A DNA stretch of 64,000 nucleotides from an uncultured Acidobacteriota bacterium (GCA_963805975.1 CAWDVR010000003.1:544001-608000); one strand, 5' to 3'; positions 9,137-23,588 are shown, numbered from the stretch's first letter. Notes: generated by a model not told the origin, from the sequence alone. Numbers and translations: made by a program.

Positions 9137-9223
9137 GCCTGTCGTGAGGGCTGACCGGCTGGCCCTCGTTTCTGTGGCTTCCTCCACAGCCTTGTGGTGC
9201 TCGCGTGGCCTAGCATCGCAGCG

Positions 9224-10273
9224 ATGCCGCCCTCCCGAGCCTGCGCCACGCTGTTTCTGCTGGGTGCCTGTGCCAGCGCCGCGGCCCTCGCACAGCCGCC
9301 GGCCGGGCACGGCCCGTACTTTCCGCTCGACGCGCCCTGGTACACGGACATCTCGAACGCGCCGGTCGATCCCCAGTCCACGGCGGTGATCTCCTGGCTG
9401 TCGAGCGTCGGCGGCTGGGGAGGCGGCGCGATGCAGATCGACTTCACGATCGAGGTGCTGGAGGCGAGCTCGATGACGCCGTTTCGCACCTTCGTCCCGA
9501 CGGACGATTTCTACGAGCCGGATTGCGACGAGGCGGCCGTGCCGGTGCCCGCGGGTGGCGCGCTCGAGGGCGAGACCGGCTACGAGTGCGAGAGCGACGG
9601 CGACTGCCACCTGCTCGTCGTCCATCCGGAAAGCCGGAAGCTCTACGAGATGTGGCGGGCCAACATCGTGGGCGCCAACTTCTTCGGTGGCTGCCTCGCG
9701 GTGTGGGACATGTCCATCACCTACCCGGAGAACGGCCGCGGCCAGGACTGCACCAGCGCCGACGCGGCCGGCTATCCCATCGCGCCGTTGCTGTTCTCTG
9801 CCGACGAGGTGGCGGCGGGCGTGATCGGCCACGCGATCCGTTTCATCCTGCCCAACGGCCGCATCCGCGACGGCATCTACGTCTATCCCTCGACGCACTC
9901 GACGGGCCCCACCAGCGGCCCGCCGACGGCGCCGCCCTACGGCGCACGCCTCCGGCTGCGCGCCAACTACCCGCTCGCCAGCCTGCCGAACGAGGGCGCC
10001 CGCGTGGTGGCCCGTGCGCTCCAGAAGTACGGCATGCTGCTCGCCGACGGCGGCACCATCGCGCTCACCGCGCAGAGCGACCAGTTCACCGCCGCGAAAT
10101 GGAACGGCCTGCTGGGGCCGCACGACCTGGCCGCGCTCCAGGTGAGCGACTTCGTGATGGTCGACGGCGGCGAGCGCTTCCTCTACACCGGCGACTGCGT
10201 GCGCCAGCACCCGATCTTCACCGACGGCTTCGAGCTCGGCGATCTGTCGAAGTGGGGCTTGGTGGTGGAGTAG
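9224..10273 (+). CDS. Secreted hypothetical protein with C-terminal IFTDGFELGDLSKW tail
   Basis: Signal peptide; GDCHLLVV, TSADAAGYPI, HAIRF, YGARLRL, ALQKYGMLLADGG; TAGCAT -10 at 9211-9216. Confidence 0.8.
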   Translation: MPPSRACATLFLLGACASAAALAQPPAGHGPYFPLDAPWYTDISNAPVDPQSTAVISWLSSVGGWGGGAMQIDFTIEVLEASSMTPFRTFVPTDDFYEPDCDEAAVPVPAGGALEGETGYECESDGDCHLLVVHPESRKLYEMWRANIVGANFFGGCLAVWDMSITYPENGRGQDCTSADAAGYPIAPLLFSADEVAAGVIGHAIRFILPNGRIRDGIYVYPSTHSTGPTSGPPTAPPYGARLRLRANYPLASLPNEGARVVARALQKYGMLLADGGTIALTAQSDQFTAAKWNGLLGPHDLAALQVSDFVMVDGGERFLYTGDCVRQHPIFTDGFELGDLSKWGLVVE

Positions 10274-10416: not shown

Positions 10417-10445
10417 TTGACTTGGAAGACATTTGTCCATACATT
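10417..10445 (+). promoter_or_regulatory. Sigma70 promoter of brnTA, probably leaderless, with operator-like inverted repeat
   Basis: TTGACT-17 bp-TACATT ending 7 nt before GTG 10453; GACA-tt-TGTC in the spacer (10428-10437). Confidence 0.75.
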
Positions 10446-10452
10446 CCTCCGT

Positions 10453-10731
10453 GTGCGGATCGAGTGGGACCCCGCCAAGGCGGAGGCCAACCTCCGGGCT
10501 CATGGGGTGCCGTTCTCCGAGGCGGCAACCGTTTTGGTGGACGAGGTTGGTCTGACGCGGGAGGATCCGGCCGCCGAGGGCGAGCAGCGATTCGTGACTT
10601 TGGGTTGCAGTGATCTCGGAGATCTTCTGGTGGTGATCCACACGTTTCGCGAGCCCGATACCGTGCGCATCATCTCCGCCTGGAAAGCCAATCGACGGCA
10701 GAGGTCAGAGTATGAAAAAGGCCATCGCTGA
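10453..10731 (+). CDS. brnT: BrnT family toxin (ribonuclease)
   Basis: IEWDPAKAEANLRAHGVPFSEAATV...EQRFVTLG...RIISAWKA. Confidence 0.9.
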   Translation: MRIEWDPAKAEANLRAHGVPFSEAATVLVDEVGLTREDPAAEGEQRFVTLGCSDLGDLLVVIHTFREPDTVRIISAWKANRRQRSEYEKGHR

Positions 10732-11026
10732 GCCGTATCGCGATATTGACTTCTCCCATGCCCGGCGTGGGCCGGTCATCCGGCCGGAGCCGGGGAAGAC
10801 CAAGGTGTCGATCCGCCTCGACAAGCGCGTGCTCGATCACTTCCGTGCGATGGTGGAGAAGGCGGGTGGGGGGAACTATCAAACGCTGATCAACAATGCG
10901 CTGGTGGCCCACATCAATCAGGAGTCCATGGTCGAAGCAGTTCGCAAGGTCGTCCGCGAGGAGCTGGGGAATAAGGCAAAGGCAACCCACCGCGCCGCGC
11001 GGCCGAAGGTGGCGATCGGAGCCTAG
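10712..11026 (+). CDS. brnA: BrnA family antitoxin
   Basis: IDFSHARR, KTKVSIRLDKRVLDHFR, YQTLINNAL; overlaps brnT. Confidence 0.9.
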   Translation: MKKAIAEPYRDIDFSHARRGPVIRPEPGKTKVSIRLDKRVLDHFRAMVEKAGGGNYQTLINNALVAHINQESMVEAVRKVVREELGNKAKATHRAARPKVAIGA

Positions 11027-14854: not shown

Positions 14855-16378
14855 GTGCCCCCGAGTACGAGGTCCGTCGCCGGCCACTACGTGGCCCTGG
14901 CAGCCTGTGTGCTGTTCGCGGCCGCGCTGTTCTTCGTCGCCGGCCGCCGGTCGAGCTACCTCGACATCGACTCCGGGCCCTACCTCTCGATGGCCCATCA
15001 CACGATGACCAGCGGGGTACCCCGGTCGAGCTTCCAGTTCGTGGACGGTGCGCCGCACCTGCCGTCGCTCGCCGGCTTCGTGCCGCCGGTGCTGGGGTTC
15101 GCGGTAGGCGTCGCGGCCCTGCCCTCGGGGAACGTGATGACCGGGGTGAAGACGGTCCTGTTGCTGGCGCTGGTGGTGACGGCCCTGGCCTCGTTCCTCT
15201 ACGTGCGCCGCTTCGCCTCGCCCTGGGTGGCGGTGGCGGCGTCCGGGCTGCTGGTGACCTCGCCGGTGATCGAGCCCTTCGAGGCGCTGGCGCTCTCGGA
15301 AGTGCCCTTCGTGGCGGCGGTGCTCCTGGCGCTCCTCGCCGCTGCCCGGGTGCTGGAGGAGCCGGGAAGCTCCCGGCGCTGGCTGCTGCTCACCCTGGCC
15401 GCGGGCCTGGTGCCCATGGTGCGCTATCTGGGGATCTTCTTCGTGCCCGGCTTCCTGGCGGCGTTCCTCGCCGCGGGTGAGCGCCGGCGGGACTGGCGGC
15501 GCCACGCGCTGCCGCTCGCCCTTTTCGCGACGTTCGCCTACCTGCCGCTCTCGCTCTGGGCGCTCGTGCTCCTGCGGCTCGATACGCCCATGCTGCCGTT
15601 GCGACCTCCGGCCGAGCTCGGCATCGCGACGGCCTGGGCCGGGGCCGCGGGGTATCTGCTGTCGTGGTGCTGGCCGTATCTCGCGGCGGCCACGGTGCTG
15701 TGGCTGCTGGCCAGGCTCACCTCTCGGCGGTGGGGCGCTGCGCCGGAGACCGAGGTGGCGGGCGTCGATCCAATCCGCCTCCCGGCGCTTCTTCTGCTGG
15801 CCTACCTGGCGGTACTGATCGCCGCCCGCACCCGCAGCTTCTACTATCCGCCGGAGGAGATCGGCTTTCGCTTCATGGTCCCTGCCTGGCCGCTCGCGCT
15901 GCTCACCGGGACCGCGGCCTTCTGCCGCTGGGTATGGAGCCGGCGCACGCGGGCGACGAGCGCGGCGGCGGCGCTGGCCTGCGGCGCGGCCCTGGCATTC
16001 GGTGTGGCGCAGGCCGCGGCGCTGCGCCTGCCCGAGACTTTCCCGGCCGGCACGGCCACTCTGGCGGCGGCGGTGGCCGCGCTGCCGGAGGACGGCGTGG
16101 TGCTGGCGAACTTTGGGCAATCGCTGGCGGCGCACCGGCCGCGGGTGTCCGTGCTGGGCCTGCCCTCGAAGGAGGACTTCCTCTACGACCTCGACCTGCC
16201 GGCGCTGGTCGAGCAGCAGCACGTGAGCTGGATCGTGCTCTGGGCGCTGCCGGACATGGAGCAGCTCTACGGTCCGGAGGTGGCGGCCTGGCTCGAGCGG
16301 CCGCCCCGCGGCTTGACCGTGCTCGGCCGCGCTCGCCTGGCCGACGGCGTGATCTACGAGGTGGCCGGAGCGCGGTAG
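14855..16378 (+). CDS. Polytopic membrane protein, GT-C (ArnT/PMT-like) glycosyltransferase
   Basis: TM1 followed by DSGPYLSMA, ALSEVPF, VRYLG, about 11 TM segments, RFMVP, periplasmic C-terminal domain. Confidence 0.72.
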   Translation: MPPSTRSVAGHYVALAACVLFAAALFFVAGRRSSYLDIDSGPYLSMAHHTMTSGVPRSSFQFVDGAPHLPSLAGFVPPVLGFAVGVAALPSGNVMTGVKTVLLLALVVTALASFLYVRRFASPWVAVAASGLLVTSPVIEPFEALALSEVPFVAAVLLALLAAARVLEEPGSSRRWLLLTLAAGLVPMVRYLGIFFVPGFLAAFLAAGERRRDWRRHALPLALFATFAYLPLSLWALVLLRLDTPMLPLRPPAELGIATAWAGAAGYLLSWCWPYLAAATVLWLLARLTSRRWGAAPETEVAGVDPIRLPALLLLAYLAVLIAARTRSFYYPPEEIGFRFMVPAWPLALLTGTAAFCRWVWSRRTRATSAAAALACGAALAFGVAQAAALRLPETFPAGTATLAAAVAALPEDGVVLANFGQSLAAHRPRVSVLGLPSKEDFLYDLDLPALVEQQHVSWIVLWALPDMEQLYGPEVAAWLERPPRGLTVLGRARLADGVIYEVAGAR

Positions 16379-16398
16379 GAGAAGGAGCCGCCTGGCGG

Positions 16399-17421
16399 CT
16401 AGGGAGGCGAGGCGACGCTCGCCGGCGGCGGCACGCGGGCGGGCGCGTCGGAGCCGTCCTGCATGAGGTAGAAGACCAGGCCGGCGACCAGGAGGAGAGT
16501 GACGATCAGCGCGGCCAGAAAGAAGCCCGGGAACTTCACCCCGTTCGCCGGGCTGCCCGGGCTGCCGAGCAGGCGGCGCGTGGTGCGGGTCAGGCCCTCG
16601 ATCTCGGCGGCCAGGCGCAGCCGGTTCTCCTGCTCCAGGCGGTCGATGTCGGCGAGCAGCGCGCGGGCGCTCGCATAGCGCTGGTTGCGGTCCTGGGCCA
16701 GGAGCTTGAGGACGATGGGATCGAGCTCGGAGGGCAGGTCGGCGACGAGCTGGCTCGGGAGCGCGATGCGGCCGGAGGGAGCGCGGCCGGTCAGCATCTC
16801 GTAGAACAGGACGCCCAGCGAGTAGAGGTCGGCGCGCGCGTCGGCCGGCGCAGTGCCGTGGGCCACCTCGGGCGAGGCGTAGTGCACGTTGCCGACCGTC
16901 ATCTGGCCGGTGGTGATGGTGCCTTCTCCCACCTTGGCGCTGTCCAGGCGGCCGCTGCCGAAATCGGCGATCTTGACGATCGAAAGATCGTCCGAGACCA
17001 GGACGTTCTTCGGCTTCAGGTTGCCGTGGAGCGCGCCCAGGTCGTGGGCGTAGGCGAGGCCCTGGGCGACGCCCTTGACCACGGTCAAGGTCTCCGGCAG
17101 GGACAACCGCCGCTGGCCCAGGAGACGGTCGAGAGAGACGCCCTCGACGTGCTCGTGGGAGACCCACGGATCCTCGCCGTGCATGCCGGAGGCGAGGGTG
17201 CGGGCGACGTTGGGATGCGCGAGGTTCTTCGCCCGCTCGCCGTCGGCGAGGAAGCGTTCGGCGGCAGCCGCGTTGCCGCGCAGCTTCGGGCCGCCCATCT
17301 TGAGCGCCACGAGCTGGCCGGTCCGCGGATCCCGAGCCTTGAGCACGCTCGCCAGGTTGCCCTTGGCGATCGTGCCCTCGACCTCGTAGGGGCCGATCGA
17401 AAGCACAGGCTGTTCAGACAT
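16399..17421 (-). CDS. Hanks-type Ser/Thr kinase domain protein with C-terminal TM; probable pseudokinase
   Basis: VALK, HPN, HGNLKPKN, DFG, YASPE, DLYSLG; C-terminal hydrophobic helix. Confidence 0.9.
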   Translation of the reverse strand: MSEQPVLSIGPYEVEGTIAKGNLASVLKARDPRTGQLVALKMGGPKLRGNAAAAERFLADGERAKNLAHPNVARTLASGMHGEDPWVSHEHVEGVSLDRLLGQRRLSLPETLTVVKGVAQGLAYAHDLGALHGNLKPKNVLVSDDLSIVKIADFGSGRLDSAKVGEGTITTGQMTVGNVHYASPEVAHGTAPADARADLYSLGVLFYEMLTGRAPSGRIALPSQLVADLPSELDPIVLKLLAQDRNQRYASARALLADIDRLEQENRLRLAAEIEGLTRTTRRLLGSPGSPANGVKFPGFFLAALIVTLLLVAGLVFYLMQDGSDAPARVPPPASVASPP

Positions 17422-18688
17422 CTTGCTCGAAGATTACCACGGTATCACCCACCGAGATGCGGTCGAGATCGGCCAGCGCCTGGGGTGCGGCCAGGGCCTG
17501 GCCGTTGACCTGGGTGCCGTAGCTCGAGCCCAGGTCGCTGGCCACGAAGGAGCGGCCGTCCCACTCGATCTTGAAGTGCTCTTTGGAGGTTTGCGGGTCG
17601 GTGAGCAGGAAGGCGCACGAACGAGAGCGTCCGACGACGACGGCGCCGGCCGCGAAGTCGAAGCTCCGGCCGCGGTCCGGCCCCTCGGCCACGTAGAGGT
17701 GGCCGCCCGGCACCTCGTCGGCCGGGCGGCGCTTGCCGCGCGGCGCCAGCTCGAGCGTGCGGATGGGGTAGGGGATCGAGATGCCGTGCTGCTTGAACGC
17801 CTCCCAGATGCGGCTCCGGGCATCGCTCGCGATGCGCGGCACAGTCGCCATGTCCTCCACCCAGATGCGCAGCTCGTAGGTGATGGCGCTGTCGTCGAAG
17901 GAGAGCAGGAAGACCTCGGGCGTGGGGTTGTCGAGCACGCCGTCCAGGCCCTGGACGCAGTCGATCAGCACCCGCCGCACCCGGTAGGGCGGCGCCTTGT
18001 AGTCGACGCCGACCCGGATGCGCTCGAGGTGCAGCGGATGCGGCCGGTAGTAGTTGAAGAGCTGGTCCTCGGCCATCTTGGCGTTGGGGATGATCAGGTT
18101 GTCGTTGTTGCGGGTACGCAACTGGGTGGTGCGCCAGGTGATGCCGGTCACCCGCCCCTCGGTGTCCCCGATCTTGATCCAGTCGTTGATGCGGAACGGG
18201 CGCTCGGCGGCGATCACCAGGCCGGCGAAGAAGTTGGTCAGGATCGGCTGCAGCGCGAGGCCCAGGACCAGCGAGCCGACGGCGCCGCCGGCGGCGAGCG
18301 CCGTGAGCTTGGTCTCCGGGAAGATCACCCGGAAGATGACCAGGCCGATGACGAAGTAGGCGGCCCAGGTGGCGACGCCGGAGATCATGGTCGGCAGCGT
18401 GACCGCCCGCCGGACCTTCAGGTGATAGTCGAAGAAATAGAGCGCCACCAGGCGCAGGACGAGCGCCACGGGCACGAAGAGCCAGGCCCACAAGATGTAC
18501 TTGCCGAGCTCCTCGGGGTGGGGCACCACCAAGAGGCGAAAGACCTCTCCGGCAGAGGCCAGCGCGGCCAGGAAGAGCGGCGCGGAGAGCTGCCGCACCA
18601 CCTGGAAGCGACGCGCCAGGGCAAGGAGGACGACGGCGGCGACGGCCGCCACCCCGAAAGCGGCGAGAAGCGCGACGGGAGCTTGCAC
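17414..18688 (-). CDS. MscS-family mechanosensitive channel fused to a C-terminal FHA domain
   Basis: LGLALQPILTNFFAG, RPFRINDWI, ITWRTT, IIPN, FDDSAITY, GISIPYP; then VVGRSRSC...QTSKEH...DLGSSYGTQVNG. Confidence 0.92.
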   Translation of the reverse strand: MQAPVALLAAFGVAAVAAVVLLALARRFQVVRQLSAPLFLAALASAGEVFRLLVVPHPEELGKYILWAWLFVPVALVLRLVALYFFDYHLKVRRAVTLPTMISGVATWAAYFVIGLVIFRVIFPETKLTALAAGGAVGSLVLGLALQPILTNFFAGLVIAAERPFRINDWIKIGDTEGRVTGITWRTTQLRTRNNDNLIIPNAKMAEDQLFNYYRPHPLHLERIRVGVDYKAPPYRVRRVLIDCVQGLDGVLDNPTPEVFLLSFDDSAITYELRIWVEDMATVPRIASDARSRIWEAFKQHGISIPYPIRTLELAPRGKRRPADEVPGGHLYVAEGPDRGRSFDFAAGAVVVGRSRSCAFLLTDPQTSKEHFKIEWDGRSFVASDLGSSYGTQVNGQALAAPQALADLDRISVGDTVVIFEQDV

Positions 18689-18778: not shown

Positions 18779-19204
18779 TCAGGCGTTTCCCGTGCGCTTC
18801 TGCGCCCGGGGCTTGTTGTAGAGCACCGGCTGGTCTCGAACCTTGCGCAGCACGGCATCTGCAGTGACCAGGGTGCAGTCGTAGACGCGGGCGGTCGCGG
18901 CAATGAAGCGATCCGCCGGATCGCTGGTCGGCACTTCGAGGCGCCGACTCTCGAAGGCCACCGAGAGATTGAGCGGAGCTTCCCGAAGCCCCAGACTGGC
19001 GACCGCCGCGTCGGTCCAGCGGATGGCATCCGGAGACAGGCTGATCCGGCCTCGCTCAGCGAGCAAGGCCAGCTCCCAAGCACTGATCGGCGAGAACCAG
19101 AGCTCGTTGTCGGGAGCGGCGATCTGCTCGGCAATCAGTGGGTTGAGGCGCGCCGGGTCGGCCACGGCCCAGACGAGGATGTGCGTGTCGAGCAGCAGAC
19201 GCAT
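18779..19204 (-). CDS. vapC: VapC family PIN-domain toxin
   Basis: MRLLLDTHILVW, SPISAWE, DPADRFIAATA, LVTAD. Confidence 0.92.
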   Translation of the reverse strand: MRLLLDTHILVWAVADPARLNPLIAEQIAAPDNELWFSPISAWELALLAERGRISLSPDAIRWTDAAVASLGLREAPLNLSVAFESRRLEVPTSDPADRFIAATARVYDCTLVTADAVLRKVRDQPVLYNKPRAQKRTGNA

Positions 19205-19206
19205 GC

Positions 19207-19446
19207 CTAAACCAGCGACGCCCACTCCTCGAGGGATGCGGCCGGAGCCACGATGTCGCCTTGTATGACCGTCCGATCCGAGAGAGCGCCGAGGACCCGC
19301 TTCGAGGAGGCCAGTGGTGCTGTCGGCACCACGTCGGCGACCGGCCGGCCGAAACGCGTCACCCGGACGGGCTGTCCTGTACGACGGACGCGATCCATTA
19401 CCGACAGGCAGGTCGCCTTGAACTGGGTGATCGGAATGTGATCCAT
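19207..19446 (-). CDS. Phd/YefM family antitoxin
   Basis: ITQFKATCLSVMDRV...VTRFGRPVADVVP...GDIVAP. Confidence 0.9.
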   Translation of the reverse strand: MDHIPITQFKATCLSVMDRVRRTGQPVRVTRFGRPVADVVPTAPLASSKRVLGALSDRTVIQGDIVAPAASLEEWASLV

Positions 19447-19452
19447 GGGGCG

Positions 19453-19481
19453 ACTCTAGTATGGTCAGAAAGAATGGTCAA
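19453..19481 (-). promoter_or_regulatory. Leaderless sigma70 promoter of phd-vapC with a repeated operator
   Basis: TTGACC-17 bp-TAGAGT ending 6 nt before the ATG; ATGGTCA repeated at 19461 and 19474. Confidence 0.75.
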
Positions 19482-21504
19482 TCTGGGCCGTGCCCGGCCT
19501 CGGCCAGGACGCGGAGGATGTCCTCTCCGTGCTGGCGCACGCGGGTGGGGCCCATCCCGGCCACGGCGAGGAGCGCCGCCTCGTCCCGCGGCCGGGCGGC
19601 TGCCAGGGCGCGGAGAGTGCTGTCGTGGAGGATCACGAAGGCCGGCACCTTGCTCTGCCGCGCTGCACCCAGGCGCCAGGCTCGGAGCGCCTCGACCAGC
19701 TCCGTGGCCGGCTGCGCCTCCGGCGGCGTGGTCTTCGAGGCTCGGGCCTTGCGCTTCTTCGGGACCGCCTGAGCCTCCTCGGGCAGAAGGACACCGGTGG
19801 TGGCCTCCGGGCCGCTCTGGAAGCCGAGCGGCGTGAGGCGGACGCGCTGGAAGGAGATCAGCTTGCCCTCCTTCTCGAACGAGTCGGCGGCGAGCCGTAG
19901 CAGCCCCGCCCGCACCAGCCCTCCGAGCAGCCGATCCAGCACCTTGCGGTCGAGCGCCCCCGTCTCGCCGCCCAACTGGCGGTGGAGCTGGCCGGTCGAG
20001 AGGCCGTCGCGCTCGCGCAGGCCGTCGAGGACCTGCTGCATCAGCCTGGCCTCCTGGGCGCTCGCCGGCCGGAAGTGGCGGACCGTCGAGGTCTCCGGCA
20101 CGCAGGCGTCGCACAGGCCACAGGGCGCGCCCGAGTCCTCCTCGTCGCCGAAGTGGCGCACCAGGTGCAGCATCCGGCAGCCGTGGGCATCGGCAAAGCG
20201 GAAGACGAGGTCGAGCTGCGCCAGCTTGTGGTCGCGCTGCGCGCTGTAGGGAGTCGGCCAGTCTTCGGAGCCGAGCGCGGCGTTGCCCTCCGCATCGACC
20301 ACGGCGCCGCCGTGCTGCCACAGCTTCTCCAGGGCTTTCTCGAGTACCTCCGCATCCAGTTTCAGCGCCGTGCGCAGCCGTTCCGCGGGCTGCGGCTCCG
20401 CTTCGAGCCGGCGATGGATCGATGCGAGGACCGCCGGCTCCGGGTAGTCCCGGGCATGGAAGAACTCGTGGGTGCGGCGGTCGGCCCAGGAGTAGAGCAG
20501 GATGGCCCGCGACGGCTCGCCGTCGCGCCCCGCGCGGCCGATCTCCTGGTAGTAGCCCTCGAGGCTCCCGGGCAGCCCGGTGTGAAGGACGGTGCGGACG
20601 TCCGGCTTGTCGACCCCCATGCCGAAGGCGATGGTGGCGACGATCACCTCGAGCGCGCCCGCGAGGAAGGCCGCCTGCACGCCGTCCCGCGCCGCGGCGG
20701 TCATGCCCGCGTGGTACGCCGCAGCAGCCAACGTCGGCTTGAGCCGGGCCGCCAGCTCCTCGGCCTCCTTGCGCGTGGGCGCGTAGACGATCGCCGGCCG
20801 CCGCGCCGGGCTCGGCCAGCAGCCGCTCGACGACCGCGTGGCGCTGCGCGGGGGGCAGCTCCACGACCTCGACCGCGATGTTGGTGCGCCGGAAGCCGTG
20901 GATGAAGCGGGCCGCGGGCGCGAGGCCGAGCTGCTCGACGATGTCGTTCTGCACCCGCGGCGTGGCGGTGGCGGTGAGGGCGATCACCGGCGCCGGCCGC
21001 AGCAGGGGGAGGCGCTGGCCGAGCAGCCGGTAGTCGGGCCGGAAGTCGTGGCCCCACTGGGAGATGCAGTGCGCCTCGTCGATCGCGATCAGCACCGGCT
21101 TGCGCCTGCGCCAGCAACTCCGGGAAGCCGGGAACCCCGAGGCGCTCGGGGGCGATGAAGAGGAAGTCGAGCGCGCCCGGCGAGGTAGTCCTGGCAGGCC
21201 CGGCGCGAGTCTGCGCGGTCGCGGCCGGAGTGGATGCGCTCGGCGCGGAGCCCGAGGCGCTTGAGCTTGGCGACCTGGTCCTCCATCAGCGCGATGAGCG
21301 GCGACACCACCAGCGTCGTGCCCGCCGCGGGCCAGTCCCGGGGAGCTGGTAGCAGAGCGACTTGCCGGCCCCGGTCGGCATCACCAGCAGCACGTCCCGG
21401 CCCTCGACCACCGCCCGGCAGACGGCCTCCTGGTAGGGCCGGAACGCGGGAAGCCGGAAGACCGAGCCCAGCAGCTCATGAAGGGTATCCGGCGACGTGA
21501 GCAT
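19478..21504 (-). CDS. recQ: ATP-dependent DNA helicase RecQ with HRDC domain, split by five +1 frameshifts (probably sequencing errors)
   Basis: [71 protein letters not shown], zinc-site Cys, [13 protein letters not shown], spread over several frames. Confidence 0.9.
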
Positions 21505-21577
21505 GGCCGCCATCTTACCGGGGAGCCGGTGCCTCGCTGCTAGCATCGGGCTCGCCCATGCTCGCACCACTCCTCCG

Positions 21578-22276
21578 ATGAACCAGCCTGAGCAGGGGCC
21601 GCTGCTCCCCATCCTGTTCCAGGACTCCTCGCTTGCCGTCGTCGACAAGCCGTCCGGCCTCGCCGTGCACCGGGGCGCGGCGCGCGACGCGGTGGTCGCG
21701 CTGACCCTCGCCCGCCGGCAGCTCGGCCGTTTCGTCTATCCCGTGCATCGGCTGGACCGCGCCACCAGCGGTGCCCTGGTCTTCGCCTTCGACCCCGGCA
21801 CGGCGCGCTCGCTCGGCGAGGCGTTCGCCGAGGGTCGGGTGGAGAAGAGATACCTGGCGCTGGTGCGGGGCCTCGCGCCGGAGAGCGCGGTGATCGATCA
21901 CCCGCTCCCGCGTGAGGAGGGCGGCCCGCGCGTGCCGGCGGTGACCGAGATCCGCCGGCTGGGAGTGTTCGAGCGCTACTCGCTGGTCGAGGCCCGGCCG
22001 GCCACCGGCCGCAGGCACCAGGTGCGGCGACACCTGAAGCACCTCTCGCTGCCGGTGATCGGCGACGTGCGCTACGGCAAGGGCGAGCACAACCGCCTGT
22101 TCCGCTCCCGCTTCGGCCTCCACCGCTTGGCTCTCCACGCGCTCGAGATCGGCTTCGAGCACCCCGCGGGCGGTGGCAGGCTGAGAGTCGTGGCGCCGGT
22201 GCCCGAGGACCTGGCGGCGCCGCTCCGGGTAATGGGTTTGCCCCATGAAGTAGGATTCTCAGCCATCGATGCCTGA
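21578..22276 (+). CDS. truC: RluA-family pseudouridine synthase, TruC-like
   Basis: DKPSGLAVH, catalytic [35 protein letters not shown]. Confidence 0.8.
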
Positions 22277-23588
22277 TCGACCCCTTGCCCCGCACGTGGC
22301 CCGCGCGCTGGGCTCGAGCCCGCCGAAGGCTCTTCCGGCGGGCGGCGGCAGTACAGCCGCCGCGTTGCAGCGTCAACCCGCTGCGCCTGCGCTGCCGCGG
22401 CCCGCCGCACACGTGGCTGCGGCGGTCACGCGAGGCCGGCTCTCGGTGCCCTCCGCCCAGGCCAAGCTCGCCGCGGTCTCGGCCGCGTCCGGGCACGAGG
22501 CGCCGGCCCGTGGAGCCCTCCCAGTCTCAGTTCCACCTCTCGCGCCGCACGTGGCGGCCGTGGTGCGGCCCTCCGTGGCTCGGAACGCGCTACGGCCGGG
22601 CGCTGCACCTCCGCTCCAGGCCAGGCCGCTGCCGGACCACGTACGGCGAGCGCTGGCTCCTCCCCCGGCCGGGCTCTTGCAGCCGATGAAGCGCCCGCGG
22701 CGCGCGGCTTCGAAGGGAGTGAACTACAGCGACGAGCAGGCGTTCGCCGTCGTCGACCGCGTGGAGCAGAAGGACCAGGAAAACTACGAGAAGAACCTGG
22801 CCGAGGTGCAAAAGGCCTACGGGCGGCTGGAGGCCAAGCGGAAGAAGCGACGGGTCGGTGACCAGGGCGAGTCGCAGACCATCTACTACGTCAAGGGCCC
22901 GGAGAAGAACCCGGAGATCCAAGAGGTGACGGCCTTCTCGGTGGACAAAGTCCGGGTCCGCGATGCCTACGAGGACGCGCAGTACGGCAGGCTCCAGCAG
23001 CAGTACTACTTCGTGCCCAGCACCTCCGGCGAGCAGTTCTTCTCGCTCCAGAGCGGGAACGACTTCGTGTTCTACAGCCTCAAGCAGCAGGAGATCGAGG
23101 TCCCGAGGCCGGACAAGAAGAAGAGGAAGCCGAAGAAGACCATCGGTTTTCGTCGCGAGGGAAACACCGGACCGTCCTACGCCGAGGTTGCCGCCACCGC
23201 CGACCTGGCGGTGCAATGGGTGCTCGACAACATCGAGGGCTACGACACCCTCAAAGACGCACGCGAGCGGGTGGGCAGCGACATCAATCGCCTGGCCGGG
23301 CGCCTGGAGCCCAGGATCGCCTATCCGGGCAAGTACCTCTGGACTCGGGCCGGTCTGAAGAGCTTCGCGTTCATCATCCGCGCCGACAAGAGCCGAGTGC
23401 CGGAGGCCACGCCCTACATCGAGAGCGTGCTCAAGGGGCGCACGAAGAGCTTCACCGAGCGTTTCGGCAACGACAAGCCGATCTACGTCGGCACCGGCTC
23501 CGGTGTGGGCAGTGGCCCCTCCCGCCTGCGCGAGCAGGCCTCCGAGGATGGCTACGACTCCGAGTACTCGGGCGACGAGAAGGACTGA
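22269..23588 (+). CDS. Hypothetical effector-like protein: PHV/xQx repeat leader plus a basic/acidic C-terminal domain
   Basis: 439-aa ORF with coding-like codon use; four P..HV units followed by a compositionally distinct domain. Confidence 0.8.
   Translation: MPDRPLAPHVARALGSSPPKALPAGGGSTAAALQRQPAAPALPRPAAHVAAAVTRGRLSVPSAQAKLAAVSAASGHEAPARGALPVSVPPLAPHVAAVVRPSVARNALRPGAAPPLQARPLPDHVRRALAPPPAGLLQPMKRPRRAASKGVNYSDEQAFAVVDRVEQKDQENYEKNLAEVQKAYGRLEAKRKKRRVGDQGESQTIYYVKGPEKNPEIQEVTAFSVDKVRVRDAYEDAQYGRLQQQYYFVPSTSGEQFFSLQSGNDFVFYSLKQQEIEVPRPDKKKRKPKKTIGFRREGNTGPSYAEVAATADLAVQWVLDNIEGYDTLKDARERVGSDINRLAGRLEPRIAYPGKYLWTRAGLKSFAFIIRADKSRVPEATPYIESVLKGRTKSFTERFGNDKPIYVGTGSGVGSGPSRLREQASEDGYDSEYSGDEKD

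Follow-up and report, generated by a model that had tools for sequence, protein, structure and literature searches.

An MscS-type channel with a C-terminal FHA domain and a membrane-anchored protein of the Hanks kinase fold are encoded by two overlapping genes in a 64,000-nucleotide stretch of DNA from an uncultured Acidobacteriota bacterium (GCA_963805975.1 CAWDVR010000003.1:544001-608000, in the following called the window). Comparison with related loci revealed that this pair is a conserved module of Acidobacteriota, found mostly in Thermoanaerobaculia. A preliminary description of the DNA had already noted two overlapping genes on the same strand, and both were indeed located on the minus strand with an 8-bp overlap, which is consistent with translational coupling.

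17414..18688, minus strand: MscS-FHA channel gene with GTG start, encoding 424 amino acids (aa); the product is predicted to have five membrane helices, followed by the MscS beta and C-terminal domains, a linker and the FHA domain
16399..17421, minus strand: partner gene, a Hanks-fold pseudokinase of 340 aa; kinase fold, predicted helix 252-286, one transmembrane (TM) helix and a 15-residue outer stub
17414..17421, minus strand: overlap (8 bp) of the channel stop with the partner start

The conservation of the pair was examined in two sets of loci which partly overlap in organisms. From a genome collection, the best 80 of 146 relatives were used, of which 77 were evaluable with at least 300 downstream bases and three had too little sequence; from metagenomes, the best 80 of 264 loci were used, of which four were without the FHA end, ten without room and 66 evaluable. 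The kinase gene lies directly behind the channel gene in 76 of the 77 evaluable genome loci and in all 66 metagenome loci, and even at the sole exception the partner is found 2.9 kb further downstream on the same strand. Gaps between channel and partner range from -38 to +50 bp across the genome loci. Whether the pair is conserved had been put forward as a check in the preliminary description, and non-conservation is clearly refuted by these counts. Among 61 genomes of the window's order, 14 (the window's included) contain a full-length channel, with one more copy broken at a contig end. The partner follows the channel in all 14 full-length copies, and in each of these genomes the top match to the window's kinase, with up to 35 candidates scored per genome, was the channel neighbour. 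A sample of 301 genomes across the phylum yielded ten matches, eight of them outside the class, and all seven distant phylum loci with downstream room carry the partner as well. The best 80 of the 146 relatives all belong to Acidobacteriota (57 Thermoanaerobaculia, 17 without class, five Holophagae and one Vicinamibacteria), within which the distribution of the pair is patchy; since the query patterns were derived from the MscS-FHA family itself, these counts do not define the full host range.

The fusion of MscS and FHA is not due to chance, as the best 120 of 393 proteins homologous to the channel-FHA junction region all contain MscS and FHA Pfam domains. The Atlas holds one 62-member cluster with identical domains and no other above 0.82, and an NCBIfam scan found no model reaching its own cut-off. 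Ten matches with a length of 743-2120 aa included no protein fusing channel, FHA and kinase, which counts as weak evidence only. No third gene is conserved with the pair in the 80 genome loci. A divergent DinB-family gene is located about 100 bases upstream of the channel in 47 of these loci, and a GGDEF-EAL gene and an aldo-keto reductase gene downstream in 23 each; none of the three flanks the window's pair. A promoter scan detected no sigma-70-like site. In the distant family f38 (L243, L244, L245, L249), several channel and partner copies appear broken by frameshifts or stops, due to either decay or assembly error.

The following parts of the channel gene are of relevance.

18245..18292, minus strand: pore-lining helix TM3a, residues 133-148
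17774..18244, minus strand: MscS cytoplasmic cage domains (PF00924, residues 149-214; PF21082, residues 224-305)
17423..17704, minus strand: FHA domain, residues 329-422

In one uninterrupted open reading frame (ORF), Pfam matches were obtained for MS_channel_2nd (149-214, E 1e-20), MS_channel_3rd (224-305, E 6e-16) and FHA (350-414, E 9e-14), which bears out the earlier claim of a complete MscS core running on into a C-terminal FHA domain; the FHA motifs GR, SKEH and DLGSSYGT named at the time are all present in the translation. PF00924 and PF21082 both score over their cut-off, the combination of pore helix and cage that marks the MscS superfamily, and PF00498 reaches 52 bits on the FHA domain against a cut-off of 20.7. 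By sequence as well as by fold, the channel matches MscS, YnaI and MscK in the PDB, and the closest PDB match of its FHA domain is that of FhaA (E 5e-11). The monomer model has five helices at the N-terminus, then the cage domains and an FHA domain built of beta strands only, with a mean predicted local distance difference test score (pLDDT) of 81.8 and a predicted template modeling score (pTM) of 0.39, the latter leaving the packing of the domains unresolved. Judging from MscS homology, with seven chains per PDB entry of the homologs, the channel would be heptameric and its FHA domains cytoplasmic.

Positions 139-141, 143-148, 150 and 152 in and next to TM3a are the same in all 81 family members. 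This includes Pro148, located at the position of Gly113, the residue described as the hinge of the E. coli MscS pore helix (PMC4560390). At positions 134, 135 and 138 the window's channel has Gly, and most family members have Thr, Ser and Thr, respectively. In one channel subgroup (P0056, P0064, P0091, P0099, P0105, P0106), an additional stretch of roughly 35-80 low-complexity residues separates cage and FHA domain, so a rigid linkage of the two is not needed there.

The five best non-FHA matches to the channel among the relatives are MscS proteins with a cyclic-nucleotide-binding (cNMP) domain. A channel-core tree was calculated from 65 sequences, namely 20 of the 81 FHA members, 12 cNMP-type proteins and 33 other hand-picked matches; the cNMP set was labelled by Pfam or by a profile from five Pfam-verified tails, and the tree is without a characterised bCNG sequence. 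The FHA group and the cNMP group each form one branch and stand jointly on one side of a 99/99 branch, as sisters and not nested. The tree is midpoint-rooted and the sequences outside the FHA family stem from one order, so the domain swap may have run either way.

For the partner, three elements have to be considered.

17005..17028, minus strand: degenerate catalytic loop HGNLKPKN, residues 132-139, with Asn134 replacing the catalytic Asp
16900..16920, minus strand: activation-loop motif T168-I-T-T171-G-Q-M174, a candidate FHA docking site inside a segment with pLDDT <50
16447..16527, minus strand: single TM helix, residues 299-325 according to the model

A Pkinase domain (PF00069) was identified at residues 12-220 (E 1e-30), and the best PDB match by sequence and by fold (Foldseek E 4e-20) is PknB. 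The model (pLDDT 87.8) shows a two-lobed kinase fold followed by helix 252-286 and the membrane helix; the hydrophobicity profile has a single peak, from residue 301, in agreement with the earlier assignment of a Hanks kinase domain plus one C-terminal TM segment. In comparison to PknB, not only the catalytic Asp is exchanged but also the alphaC Glu (Asp60), and the Gly loop is degenerate; Lys41, Asn139 and the DFG motif are retained. From this loss of motifs we infer that the window's partner is without catalytic activity. The term pseudokinase, introduced in the preliminary description, thus suits this member, though not the family as a whole: among 77 partners (the window's plus those of 76 genome loci), six keep all five of the catalytic residues Lys, Glu, Asp, Asn and DFG Asp intact. 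The catalytic Asp is absent in 65 of the 77 and the position is occupied by Asn, His, Ser, Arg, Glu and others, with no shared substitute.

The two threonines of the activation loop are kept almost throughout this set, T168 in 74 and T171 in 75 partners, and likewise among the 65 Asp-less ones (63 and 64, respectively). Ranked by conservation among 263 columns, T171 is 20th and T168 26th, with the catalytic position ranking 235th. The motif T-h-x-T-x-x-h occurs in 73 of the 77 partners, in none of the 22 other parsed kinases of the window's genome (33 found at E <1e-8, 23 parsed including the partner) and is likewise missing from the 51 next-best kinases, each of which has the Asp. Residues 162-174, which include both threonines, are the only partner segment with pLDDT <50, and as the sole low-confidence part of the model the loop is less likely to serve a folding role than to act as a linear motif. 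The ratio of nonsynonymous to synonymous substitutions (dN/dS) of the partner kinase domain was 0.13-0.35 in nine of nine pairs, indicating purifying selection.

On the side of the channel, residues of the FHA binding site were counted in 122 distinct channel-partner pairs. G353 and R354 are each kept in 121, S368 in 117, K369 in 120, H371 and T392 in all 122, and R356 in 103. Five conserved binding-site residues are listed for Rad53 (G69, R70, S85, H88 and Asn107; PMC5549992), the first four of which are matched by G353, R354, S368 and H371 in the window's FHA domain.

The conserved two-threonine motif of the loop offers a concrete candidate docking site, which lends support to the idea, already voiced in the preliminary description, that the kinase-like partner docks to the channel. 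In the mechanism we propose, another Hanks kinase of the genome would phosphorylate the partner in trans at T168/T171, the predicted ring of channel FHA domains would dock on the phosphorylated loop, and docking would alter gating or placement of the channel; we regard the chances of this reading as about even. With its 35 residues, the predicted helix would be about 5 nm long (1.5 A per residue), and it may keep the kinase fold off the membrane, in the direction of the cage bottom. As the FHA domain would occupy the place of the cNMP domain of bCNG channels, the channel is likely to be controlled from the cytoplasm and not to be a plain downshock valve. According to section 6 of a 2026 review, overexpressed bCNG channels gave E. 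coli no protection against downshock, and the reference list of the same review names one bCNG member gating under tension (PMC13591265). Together with the cNMP-type nearest relatives, this failure makes the link to membrane tension weaker than assumed earlier, and it should not be presumed. A more far-reaching view, which we put forward only tentatively, is that of a phospho-gated channel class, sister to bCNG, in which seven FHA domains would read a doubly phosphorylated T-x-x-T loop and the Ser/Thr network would open or close the pore; the dedicated membrane pseudokinase would then have evolved from a receptor kinase into a plug-in handle.

Several observations weigh against docking of this kind. 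The loss of the canonical FHA Asn is the chief argument against a textbook phosphothreonine reader: Tyr390 (17519-17521) takes its place in the window's channel (S-x-N-G-T to S-Y-G-T), only five of the 122 family FHA domains keep it, and five of the six other FHA proteins of the window's genome do so. Moreover, Hanks kinases commonly have threonines in this loop, so that their retention may be inherited and not selected for docking. The high motif count is partly by construction, since the motif was defined on this same family, and five distant partners examined (families f38 and f20) have loop threonines without the T-h-x-T-x-x-h spacing. Activation loops are often disordered in solved bacterial kinases too (PMC8339232). 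A conserved kinase that could act in trans was not found near the pair in the neighbourhoods of 80 loci. Between R356 and the two-threonine motif the raw table appeared strong (101 pairs with both, 13 with neither, five and two discordant); the link was lost after phylogenetic correction, where two pairs pointed the same way, none the opposite way and four were uninformative (p 0.5). Finally, the dN/dS of the window's copy (0.29-0.34) lies at the upper end of the range, and with its lost tail and deviant pore helix this copy may be under relaxing constraint.

Three further candidates concerning the binding site were followed. Co-evolution of Asn390 with intact catalysis, strong in the raw table, was not significant in the independent-pairs test (p 1). 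In this test and in that for R356, L197 was left out due to its short core, and L164 is a mis-extracted long branch. T311 of the channel was ruled out as ligand of its own FHA domain: it is the only conserved Thr near the linker, also occurs in cNMP-type and plain MscS proteins, and hence looks structural. A second phosphate site as in Dun1, formed there by Arg62 and Arg64 (PMC3146460), can be treated as a lead only. The channel FHA domain can have at most one equivalent of these Arg residues, and another FHA domain of the genome also reads GRSR. The register against Dun1 was set by what we take to be its Arg60.

Among other explanations for the same data, the partner might be a constitutive accessory subunit, bound independently of phosphorylation by a remodelled FHA surface, by the long helix or by the membrane helix, with the threonines making contact unmodified. 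We consider this unlikely, even though some features fit: the canonical FHA Asn is mostly replaced by Phe (67 of 122) or His (30 of 122), four of the five Asn-keeping FHA domains adjoin intact kinases, the C-lobe and the following helix of the partners are strongly conserved (E263 invariant, R269 near-invariant), and the near-universal gene overlap suggests a fixed stoichiometry. On the other hand, the phosphate-facing Arg354, Ser368 and Lys369 are almost invariant, and the link between Asn and intact kinases is non-significant once corrected. Information could also flow in the reverse direction, with the channel as sensor whose cage, changed by tension, exposes or releases the loop or shields it from phosphatases and thereby informs the Ser/Thr network. 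The same parts and the same conservation are compatible with such a sensor, MupFHA on the PknQ activation loop damped autophosphorylation (PMC4238996), and the GGDEF-EAL gene follows in 23 of 80 loci. That gene is nevertheless absent at the window locus and may reflect lineage synteny, the pore helix is near-invariant as expected for a working conduit, and the partner is without output domain and mostly without catalysis, all of which makes a sensor role quite improbable.

The FHA domain might instead read other phosphoproteins or, in the manner of Rv1747, a site within its own channel protein, with the neighbour merely co-expressed. The genome would offer ample ligands, with 33 kinase-like ORFs (E <1e-8) and six other FHA proteins, and the linker joining the FHA domains of Rv1747 is described as having two PknF target threonines (PMC8339232). 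The one-to-one coupling of the pair across several families and the structural appearance of T311, the sole conserved Thr near the linker, render this very unlikely. It is hardly credible that the window's partner is a still active kinase with an unusual active site, phosphorylating itself or the channel: Lys41, Asn139 and DFG are retained in its lineage and six of the 77 relatives have all five catalytic residues, but no common substitute exists at the Asp position across the family, and in the window's partner the Gly loop and the alphaC Glu are altered, too.

The docking mechanism proposed above resembles several known systems in part. Like bCNG or cNMP-type MscS proteins, the window's channel combines an MscS core with a cytoplasmic ligand-reading tail, and the pore helices of both are rich in Ser, Thr and Val; unlike them, it has no PF00027 match, FHA in its place and a dedicated partner gene, and at the hinge after LQ the cNMP-type channels have Asp and the FHA channels Pro. 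YnaI has five membrane helices, the same number as predicted here. Pore helix and cage are homologous to those of E. coli MscS and YnaI, which in contrast have no FHA domain and no partner gene and, in MscS, the Gly113 hinge in place of the invariant Pro. In M. tuberculosis PknF/Rv1747, the gene of a one-TM Hanks kinase likewise shares an operon with that of a membrane transporter bearing FHA domains (PMC8339232). There, an ABC transporter has two N-terminal FHA domains and the target threonines in its own linker, and the kinase is active; in the module described here, a channel has a single C-terminal FHA domain, and the candidate sites lie on the partner, which is mostly dead. Docking of FHA on the activation-loop phosphothreonine of a kinase is known from PknB/GarA (PMC8339232), where it brings a soluble substrate to a kinase that is active; in the present module, the FHA domain is part of the channel and the partners have mostly lost catalysis. 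For PknQ-MupFHA, the placement of MupFHA on the PknQ loop stems from docking and simulation (PMC4238996).

M. tuberculosis MviN/FhaA provides a membrane pseudokinase which is phosphorylated in trans and recruits an FHA domain, by which a membrane protein is controlled: the tail of the MviN pseudokinase is phosphorylated by PknB and then recruits FhaA (PMC12599244). In that case pseudokinase and membrane effector form one protein, the FHA domain is separate and the site lies on a C-terminal tail. The ActPs3/MviN pseudokinases are, moreover, actinobacterial, with full motif degradation and a deleted activation loop (PMC12599244), as opposed to the window's partner with its full-length loop, conserved threonines, retained Lys and DFG, and hosts in Acidobacteriota.

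With regard to the history of the partner, a kinase tree calculated by a quick method and rooted on eight ordinary kinases places 34 mostly degenerate partners in one group (Shimodaira-Hasegawa-like approximate likelihood ratio test, SH-aLRT, 95) and six intact, long-tailed ones outside of it. All seven long partner tails scanned contain TPR repeats, and 61 of 72 complete partners are short. The ancestral partner was thus probably a receptor kinase carrying a TPR domain on the outside. The module would have started with such a kinase phosphorylating its own loop, and many lineages would later have dropped catalysis and outer domain and retained the loop. The window's partner is apparently short for a separate and recent reason, the loss of its outer tail. 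In its close relatives, the TM helix is followed by a long TPR tail, and a 75%-identical relative has 577 aa. The missing tail was not found elsewhere in the window's genome, and a frameshift as cause was rejected in the same genome-wide look. A probable deletion site could be located.

16365..16422, no strand: probable recent deletion site, where a contig of about 94% identity has 1545 other bases in place of the window's 56

The last seven codons of the window's partner lie beyond the breakpoint. No contig bridging the 16365-16422 junction was found, so an assembly error may be the cause instead of a deletion.

Each part of the system has a known analogue; the combination of channel-FHA and pseudokinase appears to be undescribed, although a listing in a domain survey may exist. 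Full-text literature searches, covering titles and abstract starts with most subscription papers, the primary bCNG papers and supplements outside their scope, yielded no description of an MscS-FHA channel. The 2026 MscS review (PMC13591265) does not mention FHA, kinase or phosphorylation, and it states that members outside E. coli are poorly explored and that no bCNG structure exists. A 2025 review on bacterial pseudokinases does not mention "mechanosensitive" or "Acidobacteri". The pair bears on how MscS-like channels are controlled by their cytoplasmic cage and their add-on domains. If the proposed mechanism holds true, a sister of the bCNG type with a protein ligand and two named threonines would make ligand control testable by peptides and point mutants, and a bacterial ion channel would stand under Hanks-kinase control. 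The family also provides a natural series in which the kinase ranges from an intact receptor form to a pseudokinase without tail, always next to the same channel type, and which may help to explore what pseudokinases keep.

Next to the pair, a number of other genes were noted in the window. At 18779-19446 (minus), on the strand of the channel gene and some 90 bases upstream of it, a PIN-domain gene lies behind a 79-aa ORF, its putative antitoxin. A RecQ-like helicase at 19478-21648 (minus) is spread over at least three frames (a DEAD start at 21286-21648, further DEAD at 19398-21095, and Helicase_C, zinc-binding and HRDC at 19478-20731), due to either a pseudogene or sequencing indels. Convergent with the pseudokinase gene, a PMT_2 membrane glycosyltransferase-like gene is located at 14855-16378 (plus), whose final codons fall within the stretch replaced in the close relative. 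A BrnT/BrnA toxin-antitoxin pair was found at 10417-11026 (plus). Two further products have no Pfam match: one of 359 aa (9194-10273, plus), whose N-terminus is signal-like and whose C-terminus bears a short motif, and one of 439 aa (22269-23588, plus), which is rich in Pro/Ala at the N-terminus and has a charged domain at the C-terminus. Outside of the window, P0242 and P0243 are proteins of about 850 aa, of which P0242 combines an MFS transporter with three FHA domains in one chain and represents another type of FHA-bearing membrane transporter.

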